A stretch of DNA of 64,000 nt from Candidatus Berkelbacteria bacterium (GCA_037142675.1 JBAXAF010000002.1:13300-77299), one strand, 5' to 3'. Positions 26,801 through 30,990 are shown, counted from the stretch's first letter. Made by a program: numbers and translations. The notes: generated by a model from the letters alone, not told the origin.

Positions 26801-27448
26801 AAAGTTAATCCAACCCCAGTCTTCGCTCCAGGCATAACCGGAGAAATTTCCTCCTGTAGCTATCACCACATTGGCGCCGGTCGGACTTGCATTAAAATCA
26901 ATATAGCCGCCGTTTAGCATTTTCGCCTTTCCTGATAAATGTCCGGAAGTGTCAGCGACTACCGGTCCCGAAGGATTGCTATCTGAGCCAAAGCTAATCC
27001 AGCCGAGATCGCCACCCCAGGCATAACCGCCCATCTGGCGAGAATAATTATCTATCGTCACATTGCTATGGTAAGTTCCTGCGTCAAAGTAAATTTTTTC
27101 GCCAGTGTTAACAATAGTTCCGGTAGTTCCCACAACCGCTACCGCACTGCCGGTAGCCTCAGAGTGCTTACTCGAGAGAAACATACCGCCAGCTACGATA
27201 ATAAAGCCGCAAAATATTGTGAATGCCGTCCAGCCGATTTGTTTGCGGTAAGGTTTTGCTTTTTTGGTAATCTTTGCGAGCCAACTATTAAATTCTGCCG
27301 GACTGGTAGAATCTTGATTTATACTTTGTCTTTTATGATTAACTTTTAGAGAAAATGACAAATGTTTTTTAAAATTACTAAAAACTTCACAAATCTTTTT
27401 TGTGATCTGTCGATAATTTCGATTAATTTTGGATATTAGCTTTTTCAT
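23879..27448 (-). CDS. very large cell-surface protein with multiple FN3-like repeats (N-terminal membrane anchor)
   Basis: 1189 aa; repeated ~90-aa modules with YYxxxxxxDxAGNxS-type patterns; start codon overlaps RT stop (ATGA). Confidence 0.6.
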   Translation of the reverse strand: MKKLISKINRNYRQITKKICEVFSNFKKHLSFSLKVNHKRQSINQDSTSPAEFNSWLAKITKKAKPYRKQIGWTAFTIFCGFIIVAGGMFLSSKHSEATGSAVAVVGTTGTIVNTGEKIYFDAGTYHSNVTIDNYSRQMGGYAWGGDLGWISFGSDSNPSGPVVADTSGHLSGKAKMLNGGYIDFNASPTGANVVIATGGNFSGYAWSEDWGWINFSGITSPDYNPDLLPPNNPSSITAKSTSSGVTLDGATWYNYPTPYFSWTAPSDNANGITPSGVAGYYVYFGTNASADPSVWQTTTNYTASDLSTNYNQSYYLRIKTQDVAGNISTAATVYTYKYDQDNMAPPDPTLATAKSQSSSGSDIVSGDWHNYAAPYFTFNASTDATDGSHANTVSGTAGYYVYFGTSNSADPHTAGSYQTGLNYTAGSLASGSTYYLRISSKDNAGNIGSGSTIFTYKYETATPDSPKYVSVSPSGFTRTNSFTFIWPTSGADMASDTGGSGIYGYQYKTGATDGIYSDWSATMTGGSLELGDVAYRTGTNIFYLRAVDNAGNVDPTPVQTNFYYNNTAPTAPKNLTVTPSSSDSNSFAFSWDEPSTGSGTISGYYYSINALPTPSNTSFVTDRILPAGPYATQQGENTFYIVAKDEAGNYSFDSCNAISGNSDTDGCAKTTFTANTTAPGAPASLQIFDISNRDASLFAATLKWIAPANTGTGFNGYEIYRSTDGSNYSSVGTTAGSTYADTDLTSQKYYYYVKSKDNAGQHSVASSIVNLTPTGRYTNPPAITEAPTASPKAFSATISWETDREGSSFGYFAKSKDDLKNAKGFGQPEKSKKHSVEVIGLDPETIYYYQAMWEDSDGNQGRSDVYSFKTGLRPKISDVKVSNITLNAATISWTSTTIATSTINYGKTPNYGGNISDKSGSQTTSHSINLTSLDDSATYHFQIIGTDTDNNQLISDDYTFNTLTMPKISNFRFETVKDAPTTTLKFNWDTNVATTSIVSYTIGSSAQTASQADYKTAHEITVSDLQDKSVYVLKAKGVDNFGNQVESDANTYTTPLDTRPPKLSSLAVEIKSNGFGQTQQAQLVVSWQTDEPSTSQIEYSTGISGSDYDFKTKEDMALSTSHVVIASGLEPSKIYHLRAVSHDNAGNMGTSNDTTTITGKIQQSVVDIIVNSLQKSLGFLSKMFYPNN

Positions 27449-28642
27449 CAGATTTTTGCGAAATTAGCCATTTTCTGCCTTAAGCCAAACGCATTGGCCC
27501 AAATGCCATGCGCCATATAAGAATCAAAGACTTCCTCTTTTCGCTCCATGTCTTCGGCTATCTCCATTTTTCGGCGCCACTCGCCGACAATTCGTTTTCT
27601 TATCAGGGTATAATCGGCGCGAACGATATAGCCGACAAAGTCGATTCCGCTGTTTATTTCCCGAATAAATTGTTTTCCAGGGTGAACCCTTAGCTCTAAT
27701 TTTTCTCGGGTAAACTCGGTGATTTTATCTCGGCACCTTTCCAGATTTTCGATATTTGTATCCAAAATCAGAAAATCGTCGACATAACGGATATAATATT
27801 TAGCTTTCAAAGTGTGCTTCACAAACTGGTCTACTTCATTCATATAGACATTGGCGAAAAATTGACTGGTCAGGTTCCCGATCGGTAATCCCTTGCCTTT
27901 GGCGGTTTTAAACAGTGACTTGTCGGCCGGCAGTTTGGCAAACAAGCTTGGCTGGCTCTGAATTTTCGGTTTTGTATCTTTGACGCAATCATGGAAAATA
28001 ATAATCTCGCTCAGCCACAGAATTTCTGGGTTTTTAACTCGCCTGGCCACTAAAGCGTACAAAATTCGCTGGTCAATGCCGGTAAAAAAGCTTTTAATAT
28101 CCATTTTGAGGTAAAAGTTTTGGCGTGTCATAACTCTCTCTCTCTCTCTCTCTCTCTCTCTCTCTCTCTCTCTCGAGTTCAGCTGTCATCCTGAGGTTAC
28201 AGCCGAAGGATCTCTGGCGAATGCCAGTTCCCATATTCATGGGAGATTCCTCGACAAGCTCGGAATGACAAGAACGGTCGAGTTTGTGCACAAACTCTCG
28301 AAGTCGAAGCATTGCTCCATGTGTTCCTTTGCCTTTTCTGCAAGCCCAGGAGTCATAAATAAATACTTTCTCGAAAATCGGCGACAAGTAATTGTGCAAA
28401 AGGTGATGAACGACGCGGTCTCGAAAGTCGGCGGCGAAAATCTCTCTGATCTTCGGTTTTTCAACTATAAAAGCTATCGACCGCCCTGGTTTGTATGTTC
28501 GAGTCTGCAATTGTTTTTCAAGCGTAAGCAAGTTTTCCTCCAAATTCTGGCTGAATTCCATGGCATAAAAACTCATCGATTTTCTTTTGCGACAATCCAA
28601 ATATGCTTTGTATAAATTTTCGTAGGTGAAATATGTTTCCAT
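27448..28642 (-). CDS. diversity-generating retroelement reverse transcriptase, reading frame interrupted by MITE-like insertion and (CT)20 tract (two ORF pieces 28094-28768 and 27448-28131)
   Basis: N-piece: RSIAFIVEKPKIREIFAADFRDRVVHHLL...CRKGKGTHGAMLRL (RT motifs 0/1). C-piece: LKMDIKSFFTGID (motif 2), GLPIGNLTSQFFANVYMNEVD (DGR-specific xGxxxSQ), YIRYVDDFLIL (YxDD). Pieces are offset by -2/+1 nt. Confidence 0.85.
28134..28174. repeat. (CT)20 dinucleotide microsatellite inside the RT coding region, followed by CTCGAGTTC
   Basis: 41 nt of perfect CT alternation; translated as ERERERE... in the N-piece frame. Confidence 0.95.
28184..28270. mobile_element. 87-bp MITE-like insertion within the RT gene (TIRs TGTCATCCTGAG / CTCGGAATGACA)
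   Basis: terminal inverted repeats related to the TGTCATTGCGAG family; length is a multiple of 3 and open in the RT frame. Confidence 0.55.
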
Positions 28643-28666
28643 TTTTTTCTTGTCATTTGTTTTTCT

Positions 28667-28742
28667 TGTCATTGCGAGGCTTTGCGAAGCAATCTTTTTT
28701 GTGTTTTTTATGGGATTGCCACGCCTGCTGGCTCGCAATGAC
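28667..28742. repeat. MITE-like palindromic element, TGTCATTGCGAG family (copy 2), in the TR-RT spacer
   Basis: TGTCATTGCGAGGCTTTGCGAAGCAATC...GATTGCCACGCCTGCTGGCTCGCAATGACA. Confidence 0.7.
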
Positions 28743-28776
28743 ATACTCATTTTAGGTAGAAAAGGCATCCCCGTTG

Positions 28777-28906
28777 CCTGACACAGCGAACATTGTTGTT
28801 ATTGCCCTCTCCATTGTTGTTCGTGTTGCCATTATTCAACTGGACGTTCCACGCGTTAGATCCAACGCTGTTCTCCGTCGCCGACCAGTAGTTGTTGGAT
28901 GGCTGA
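28777..28906 (-). other. DGR template repeat (TR)
   Basis: 130 bp ~90% identical to VR (29499-29628); all 13 mismatches are at TR adenines on the coding (minus) strand; AAC/AAT codons in TR. Confidence 0.9.
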
Positions 28907-30536: not shown

Positions 30537-30550
30537 TTATAAATTCTTTT

Positions 30551-30616
30551 TGTCATTGCGAAGTACGAAGCAATCTCATTCCACACAGATTGCCGCGCCT
30601 GCTGGCCCGCAATGAC
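30551..30616. repeat. MITE-like palindromic element, TGTCATTGCGAG family (copy 3), immediately upstream of target gene start
   Basis: TGTCATTGCGAAGTACGAAGCAATC...GATTGCCGCGCCTGCTGGCCCGCAATGACA. Confidence 0.7.
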
Positions 30617-30716
30617 AAACCCTAATCCTCGCAATGTAAAACTATAAATATTAAAAAAGACACTCAAAAGAGTGCTTGAATTACCAGTTCTAAATGCAAA
30701 AACGGAGAGCTCCTTA

Positions 30717-30745
30717 CTCTCTCTCTCTCTCTCTCTCTCTCTCTC
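30717..30745. repeat. (CT)14 microsatellite followed by CTCGAGTTCGGAACTTCGAACTCGAG palindrome, in the target-gene upstream region
   Basis: 29-nt CT tract; same CTCGAGTTC flank as the intragenic (CT)20. Confidence 0.95.
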
Positions 30746-30990
30746 GAGTTCGGAACTTCGAACTCGAGCTAAAGCGCGCTCGTTACAGTTACGTTTAATG
30801 TTCCCTCCTCTATATAAAACACAGTCTTTGAAATGATTACTTATAATTATACATCAACTAAACCAATAATACATCATTTATTATTTTGTTGTAAATGCCT
30901 AGAAATCAAATTAATAGCAACTGGGATTTTCTTAGGAATTATCGTATCAATTTGGCACTTTAATCGTATCATTTTGATACGAGAAAGAGA

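Follow-up and report, generated by a model that had tools for sequence, protein, structure and literature searches.

A GA dinucleotide tract sets the reading frame of a diversity-generating retroelement reverse transcriptase in Candidatus Berkelbacteria: a probable slipped-strand switch of targeted hypermutation

Why should the reverse transcriptase (RT) of a complete diversity-generating retroelement (DGR) be divided in two at a perfect run of dinucleotides? The question is raised by a stretch of 64,000 nucleotides from a Candidatus Berkelbacteria bacterium (GCA_037142675.1, JBAXAF010000002.1:13300-77299), called here the window, whose minus strand carries a DGR in the order target gene with variable repeat (VR), bAvd accessory gene, template repeat (TR) and RT. 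The RT occupies two open reading frames (ORFs) on that strand, 28094..28768, with the true start at 28642 (METYFTYENL), and 27448..28131. The N-terminal piece (28174-28642) contains motifs 0-2a and the C-terminal piece (27448-28133) motifs 2-7, including IGNLTSQ and YVDDF. Between them lies a perfect simple sequence repeat (SSR) that sets the frame, (GA)20 on the coding strand and (CT)20 on the plus strand (28134..28173), read as (ER)n in the upstream frame. A first-pass annotation of the window had described the two pieces with their DGR motifs, the ER reading and the (CT)20 and (CT)14 tracts, all of which were borne out, the exact ends of the tracts being 28134-28173 and 30717-30744. They are the only dinucleotide tracts of at least six units in the window, and both are followed by CGAGTTC. 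On editing the tract in silico the two RT pieces fused at n = 15, 18, 21 and 24 (n mod 3 = 0); therefore the 20 units of the window need the gain of one or the loss of two, the reverse of the arithmetic first proposed, loss of one or gain of two. As homologues begin at METYFTYENL, the fused enzyme has 398 aa from the conserved start (~440 aa from an upstream ATG) rather than the ~450 aa initially estimated. The RT is broken only by the frame change at the (GA)20 tract. Slipped-strand phase variation of the DGR RT, with the tract as an SSR contingency locus gating targeted hypermutation, is the probable explanation of this arrangement.

The window was compared with ten near-identical sibling contigs from JGI, ENA and NCBI assemblies, a check that the first-pass annotation had suggested. 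The tract has four lengths on an otherwise identical RT: 11 units in seven contigs, 12 in one (L001; L-numbers designate the loci or contigs compared and P-numbers the proteins), 17 in two and 20 in the window. The alleles of 11, 17 and 20 units are out of frame (OFF). The 12-unit allele is in frame (ON) and naturally fused, a continuous intact RT called by JGI as a 434-aa protein (P0126). Over the remaining 1.2 kb of the RT gene the siblings show 0-1 single-nucleotide polymorphism (SNP). At 90% identity, the C-terminal piece clusters with the 434-aa fused RT and with N-terminal pieces of varying ER count, and the NCBI names in the cluster are Candidatus Berkelbacteria. The sibling comparison supports the core of the initial proposal, that the tract is a slipped-strand on/off switch and not the outcome of decay or of an assembly error.

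The repeats of the cassette tell whether the element has been at work. In the window the TR (28772..28906, minus strand) and the VR (29494..29628, minus strand, the last 135 nt of the target gene) are 135-nt repeats of 90% identity with 13 differences; TR adenines account for 12, and the remaining one is a fixed C/T at the 3' boundary. Comparison of each VR with its own TR in six sibling contigs and the window gave 7-19 differences, all at TR adenines except one fixed boundary base. In a 3.8-kb alignment of the siblings the RT has one SNP outside the tract and the VR 46 variable columns. Two avd/TR haplotypes were found among the siblings (28772-29431 of the window versus L001-L009), separated by 29 SNPs in avd, 6 in the spacer and 5 in the TR. 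Each VR agrees with its own TR haplotype at non-adenine sites, so that retrohoming would have occurred after the lineages split. Since the sibling VRs differ only at TR adenines, the DGR appears to have been active in this population in recent times and more than once, also in lineages that now have an OFF consensus RT. Given this apparent recent retrohoming, the RT copy of the window is evidently not a dead relic; an intact RT elsewhere, which the first-pass annotation had considered as a sign of such a relic, was not found within the 64-kb window, where no second RT occurs. The adjacent RT gene is identical across both haplotypes, which suggests that the avd-TR segment was exchanged by recombination. 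Tract lengths follow the haplotype, with 17, 17 and 20 units on one and 11 and 12 on the other.

The tract site aligns with a short loop of the Bordetella RT, bRT (8ub7), between the helix that follows the GTH motif (motif 2a) and the motif-2 strand. Next to the tract, between the K-L codons and the repeat, lies a miniature inverted-repeat transposable element (MITE) with a body of 98 nt (28180..28277, minus strand), flanked by a 7-bp target-site duplication (TSD), TCGAGTT, at 28173-28179 and 28278-28284. Body and duplication add up to 105 nt, in frame and free of stops, and are read as a 35-aa loop; deleting the element in silico recreates the empty site of the closest relative, L173. The first-pass annotation had given the MITE 87 bp and had it split the RT: the element is there and open in frame, but the enzyme is not broken by it. 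An AlphaFold2 model of the fused RT, built on an alignment of 56 sequences, reached a mean pLDDT (predicted local distance difference test) of 89.8 and a pTM (predicted template modelling score) of 0.84, with the MITE and ER segment (about residues 121-168) as a low-confidence helix-loop-helix protrusion and the remaining fold confident. In further lineages, MITEs or palindromic inserts of other kinds adjoin the tract (P0004, P0020, L093/L107, L095, L111, L113), those of P0004 and P0020 at the same K-L/tract junction and those of L095 and L111 just after the tract, and the loop appears permissive for that reason. The ER/MITE insert should hence be tolerated by the RT fold: in the model it forms a surface loop predicted to lie outside the folded core, and the earlier concern that it might interrupt an essential structural element is not sustained.

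The same tract recurs at the same loop across the RT clade. The DNA between the conserved '...EFxxKL' and 'FYLKMD' blocks was compared in 160 related loci. Full-length homologues of 60-86% identity have (ER)n at exactly this position, and among RTs whose C-terminal part is at least 57% identical there are 20 loci with pure (GA)n of 8-25 units and one, L106, with an interrupted tract; the exceptions without a tract are L099 and L161. None of the more distant RTs has a tract at the linker, which in nearly all of them is a fixed 24 nt. Seven of the 21 tract loci are in frame and 14 out of frame, and in all 14 of the latter neither half contains a stop over ~340 codons and both align full length. 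A bias of OFF alleles towards one frame class was considered and dropped, the counts per class (7, 3 and 11) being not significantly non-uniform. Because only GAG and AGA are used as codons in the tract (elsewhere in these genes GAG accounts for 38% of Glu and AGA for 28% of Arg), the repeat seems to be kept at the DNA level and not as a protein motif. Tract-length polymorphism on a near-identical background was found in three lineages beyond that of the window: L097 (16 units, ON) and L116 (20, OFF) have 0 mismatches in 2109 nt, L093 (8, ON) and L022 (9, OFF) 1 mismatch in 1689 nt, and L104 and L105 have 14 versus 15 units. Among GTDB species-representative genomes only one member of the linker-tract clade, L022, was present. 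In ~10 of 19 lineages a compact GC-rich hairpin begins 0-3 nt after the tract within the RT ORF, often with a T run behind it (L094, L096, L097, L102, L105, L108, L109, L112 and L135; for example GGGGCTCCGCCCC-TTTTTT). It resembles a terminator or a frameshift stimulator; the window lineage and its closest relative do not have it. As a separate observation, L161 (5363-5465), an RT of the same clade with 62-72% identity, is frameshifted at the same linker without a tract and is either a true pseudogene or an error.

Repeats of this kind also occur at other places in DGR RTs. L173 has, beside the DGR that is the closest relative of the one studied here, a second, divergent DGR RT (1173-2327, with an inverted avd at 803-1153) whose in-frame (GA)28 lies in a different loop, immediately ahead of GIPIGNL, with hairpins or palindromes on either side. 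In eight more distant lineages (GA)8-27 or (CA)17 separates the conserved N-terminus from the sole start codon available, three times in frame and five times out of frame; the labels of the metagenome-assembled genomes (MAGs) include Nomurabacteria, Taylorbacteria, Paceibacterota, Patescibacteria, Gammaproteobacteria and deltaproteobacteria. Three positions in RT genes thus appear to have gained a tract independently. The 1.07 Mb of non-sibling loci contain 37 GA-type tracts of at least six units, and each of these is located either within an RT ORF or on the upstream side of a DGR target gene; ~0.9 Mb of flanking DNA yielded none. The negative control, 72 viral DGR loci (512 kb), yielded no tracts and no close relatives.

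Such a switch would operate as follows. Slipped-strand mispairing in replication would alter the number of (GA)n units and thereby turn the RT on or off. The tract would sit in a permissive surface loop between the helix behind motif 2a and the motif-2 strand, where all its frames would encode harmless Glu-Arg repeats, and in the MITE-bearing lineage RT would be made only at a unit number divisible by 3, which would leave the window allele OFF. In cells with an in-frame tract, RT and Avd would transfer the sequence of the TR RNA, with errors at adenines, to the VR in the gene of the Lcl_C target, and a slip out of frame would freeze the current VR, so that the population might alternate between bursts of targeted hypermutation and stasis. 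What was observed is a tract that varies in length where the background is identical, an in-frame allele in nature, gene halves that are intact, recent VR turnover confined to adenines, and the return of the tract in other members of the clade and outside it. The mechanism further supposes frequent, reversible switching within the population, no active RT from OFF alleles and selection for the tract arrangement.

Several observations weigh against phase variation and lend some weight to its rivals. Each assembly gives one consensus tract length, in which a mixture within the population is not visible, and ten of the 11 sibling assemblies are OFF. As several of the ENA and JGI assemblies may share the same or related lake samples, the independent observations are fewer than the contigs. 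The ON:OFF ratio is near 1:2, the expectation of unselected frame drift. The OFF alleles 11, 17 and 20 all belong to one frame class, which is not significant with four distinct alleles and would also fit read-through of one particular frame. Recoding of that sort, where the ribosome or the RNA polymerase slips on (GA)n, RT is made from out-of-frame alleles and the tract acts as a dosage attenuator whose length matters little, is nevertheless unlikely. It agrees with the single OFF frame class of the window lineage, with VR turnover in spite of a consensus RT that is OFF in most assemblies, with the hairpins after the tract and with the Glu-Arg coding of all frames, which allows tRNA-Glu (GAG) and tRNA-Arg (AGA) a perfect re-pairing once they have shifted by 2 nt. 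However, the downstream hairpin is missing in the window lineage and its closest relative, OFF alleles of other lineages are found in both frame classes, and the N-terminal tracts elsewhere resemble classic switches that uncouple a start codon from its ORF; we know of no bacterial dinucleotide repeat on which frameshifting or transcriptional slippage is efficient. Two separately made polypeptides that assemble into an active RT would likewise reconcile VR turnover with an OFF consensus. The split point is a surface loop, and an ATG follows the tract in the window lineage (at 28131, 3 nt after the purine-rich repeat) and in L173. Yet most other tract lineages have no start codon after the tract, the mechanism is impossible for those with N-terminal tracts, and we know of no two-chain DGR RT, all of which makes a split enzyme highly unlikely.

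The two remaining rivals deny the tract any function or its very variation. If the (ER)n linker were merely tolerated and slippage simply inactivated the RT, the OFF copies, including that of the window, would be young pseudogenes. The neutral ON:OFF ratio and the prevalence of OFF siblings would be expected under such a non-adaptive hotspot, to which the frameshift without a tract in L161 and the interrupted tract of L106 may be added. This explanation is rendered improbable by the 14 OFF homologues and the window copy, all of which lack any other lesion in ~340 codons, by an RT that stays identical among siblings while the VR turns over, by tracts that remain pure, not broken by point mutations, across lineages 57-86% identical, by the independent origins at three RT positions and by the absence of tracts from viral DGRs and flanking DNA. 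Dinucleotide repeats are also prone to PCR stutter, and several sibling contigs start within 75-390 nt upstream of the tract, so a constant, in-frame tract blurred by stutter or assembler error might be suspected. But the length of 11 was obtained from JGI, ENA-megahit and NCBI MAG assemblies and that of 17 from two pipelines, tract length co-segregates with the avd/TR haplotype, and four lineages behave alike. Moreover, the tracts do not exceed 50 nt, which we take to be shorter than typical Illumina reads and than the k = 141 suggested by 'k141_' contig names. An artefact is accordingly very improbable.

The second tract of the window, (AG)14 on the coding strand (30717..30744, minus strand), is located ~180 nt ahead of the target start, with TAA immediately behind it. 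The first-pass annotation had considered that it might switch the target promoter. In favour of a switch, the tract is polymorphic in length among the siblings (11, 12 or 14 units) and has counterparts in other DGRs, but it lies in a leader that appears to be transcribed, and no recognisable promoter spacer is involved. The model of a promoter spacer was rejected, as the tract is too long to separate a -35 from a -10 box and the best sigma-70-like match, TTTACA-18-TATTAT (30866..30895, minus strand; a consensus match only), is found upstream of it. The tract abuts a perfect 10-bp palindrome, CTCGAGTTCG-n6-CGAACTCGAG (30743..30768), and two terminator-like hairpins (30660..30721, minus strand) stand between it and the target, the 5' arm of the first being formed by the final GAGAG of the tract. 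The homologous tract of L173, with the same flanks, has 11 units, and analogous tracts occur 42-214 nt upstream of target genes in L067, L124, L023, L046 and L094/L105. That of L094/L105 has the opposite orientation and lies downstream of a near-consensus promoter, TTGACG-17-TATAAT, and of a conserved ~190-nt leader shared by L094 (385-580) and L105 (2850-3045). The leader contains the motif GGAGGGAAC, found also upstream of the second tract of the window (~30803-30811, minus strand), and an Rfam search with the L105 leader gave no relevant match.

In five lineages (AG)n is immediately followed by TAA. L124 (~370-440) and L023 (reverse strand, ~1780-1830) have a short upstream ORF (uORF) that begins with ATG, reads M-x6-(RE)n-stop, ends at this TAA and is followed by terminator hairpins; such a uORF could be a tract-length-dependent leader-peptide attenuator. 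L046 and the window (30700-30745) likewise have an (AG)n upstream of the target, then TAA and terminator-like hairpins, and a canonical start codon for a uORF through the second tract is lacking in the window and in L173. The second tract may be given a regulatory role in the leader, possibly tract-length-dependent attenuation, and would probably modulate expression of the cassette. Pairing of a leader (CU)n with the (GA)n of the RT RNA was considered and discarded, for it needs inverted tracts, which only L094/L105 have, those of the window and L173 being direct. Whether (GA)n tracts form a general convergent control layer of DGRs in Patescibacteria and some other uncultured lineages, in which the RT tract gates hypermutation and the leader tract tunes the target as a two-tier bet-hedging system, is an evenly balanced matter.

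The two tracts had also been thought to bracket the TR-avd-target module as direct repeats with an identical flank. The flank CTCGAGTT is indeed present at the RT tract, and its origin lies in ancestral RT sequence: it corresponds to the codons K-L-E, doubled because the insertion of the MITE duplicated its target site. As the ends of a duplicated or mobile unit the tracts were rejected, since beyond AACTC and the tract the flanks show no relationship, the TSD accounts for the additional identity at the RT tract, and no sibling has the 2.6-kb interval deleted. The RT MITE has imperfect terminal inverted repeats (TIRs), GTCATTCCGAG / CTCAGGATGAC, and folds into a hairpin (DNA fold z = -2.4). 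TIR matches in the window number nine, against a chance expectation of 1.95; they comprise four pairs, each a copy with related TIRs, and a single arm of the RT element. The exact subfamily of the RT element has one copy in the window, and the four related palindromic copies, ~65-87 bp with GTCATTGCGAG termini, are at 21572-21653, 28668-28742, 30552-30616 and 36539-36625. Two of these GTCATTGCGAG elements lie in intergenic DNA of the DGR, in the gap between the TR and the RT start and in that between the second tract and the target start. With its TIRs, 7-bp TSD, hairpin, empty site and four relatives in the window, the RT element resembles the GTCATTSCGAG-type palindromic MITEs, from which it differs in sitting in frame inside an enzyme gene and being translated as a 35-aa loop.

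The other parts of the cassette are those of a typical DGR. The target gene (29496..30536, minus strand, probable ATG at 30524) encodes a secreted protein with a signal peptide and a C-terminal Lcl_C domain (Pfam PF07603, E = 2.7e-15), which is closed by the VR, the PF07603 match ending there. The avd gene (29084..29431, minus strand) matches PF22296 (E = 2.8e-11). The RT gene, an OFF allele (27448..28642, minus strand), matches RVT_1 (E = 2.7e-17), and homologues of 60-86% identity align with it end to end; both IGNLTSQFFANVY, with the motif-4 [I/L]GxxxSQ, and YVDDF are present, and in a profile search its best PDB match was Bordetella bRT (8ub7, E = 4.9e-55). An inverted repeat of 19-21 nt, with its 5' arm at 29063..29082 and its 3' arm at 28750..28768 (minus strand), encloses the avd-TR spacer and the TR, its arms ~295-345 nt apart. 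In L173 (5555-5573/5867-5885) it has the same sequence, and in L097 (660-680/1025-1045) and L098 (4642-4662/4973-4993) both arms are changed in a compensatory manner that mostly keeps the pairing. The repeat may form a long-range helix that closes the template RNA of the DGR. No Rfam family reached its gathering score in the cassette, the best being RT-17 with 23.4 bits against a cutoff of 40.4 bits. Next to the DGR (31866-36145) there are Fic, AbiEii, DUF6922 and Replic_Relax genes and a serine recombinase, a neighbourhood that suggests an integrated mobile or defence island. In the sibling L005 (991-2004) a gene for an rve-type integrase takes the place of Fic upstream of the target.

The arrangement has its nearest likeness in the phasevarions of Neisseria, Haemophilus and Helicobacter, where methyltransferases are switched. 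In both cases a perfect short repeat, with a unit that is not a multiple of 3, lies inside an enzyme gene, its length toggles the frame, ON and OFF alleles are found among near-identical strains, and the enzyme so switched affects, or would affect here, many phenotypes downstream; the N-terminal tracts of L015, L017 and others have the classic layout of start codon, repeat and ORF body. The differences are that here the switched gene is the RT of a targeted-hypermutation retroelement, which would gate a second diversity generator, that a dinucleotide is repeated many times (8-28 units) within an internal surface loop, and that the hosts belong to the Patescibacteria. With the prototype DGRs, those of Bordetella phage BPP-1 (brt/avd/TR/mtd), Legionella and Treponema, the element shares the [I/L]GxxxSQ motif of the RT, Avd, the adenine-specific TR/VR relation and a VR at the C-terminus of the target, here an Lcl_C domain. 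It departs from them in the repeat, as the solved bRT has no tract and a short ELRRTRAT loop at the site, nor do any of the 72 viral DGR loci have one. Reversible mutator switches, in which mutL or mutS is switched by tandem repeats or by prophage excision, are comparable in that a stochastic, reversible change of mutagenic state limits the cost of mutagenesis. They change the mutation rate genome-wide, whereas DGR mutagenesis is confined to one 135-nt VR.

To our knowledge, the natural regulation of DGR activity is largely unknown and no switch has been identified so far; nor do we know of any description of phase variation in Patescibacteria or the candidate phyla radiation (CPR), for which no specific search was made. 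A full-text literature search retrieved no report linking DGR RTs to SSRs, frameshifts or phase variation, in agreement with the initial claim that an on/off switch inside a DGR RT had not been described. Where the term 'phase variation' was encountered, it concerned other matters, such as the phase variation of the host that underlies the tropism switch of BPP-1. DGRs and SSR phase variation are each well known, and their connection appears to be undescribed. Metagenomic time series suggest that DGRs pass through alternating phases of diversification and of purifying selection (Roux et al., bioRxiv 10.1101/2020.04.01.020958).

A reading frame of the RT set by a repeat would be a simple, heritable and reversible control, which would cap the cost of hypermutation and let a favourable VR be frozen. 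The idea is testable on existing metagenomes by comparing the counts of repeat units in reads with VR heterogeneity, and the permissive loop could serve as an insertion site for the engineering of DGR RTs. Many of the 'broken' DGR RTs of CPR bacteria should consequently not be annotated or discarded as pseudogenes. If the tract is such a switch, phase variation would extend to ultra-small, host-dependent bacteria.

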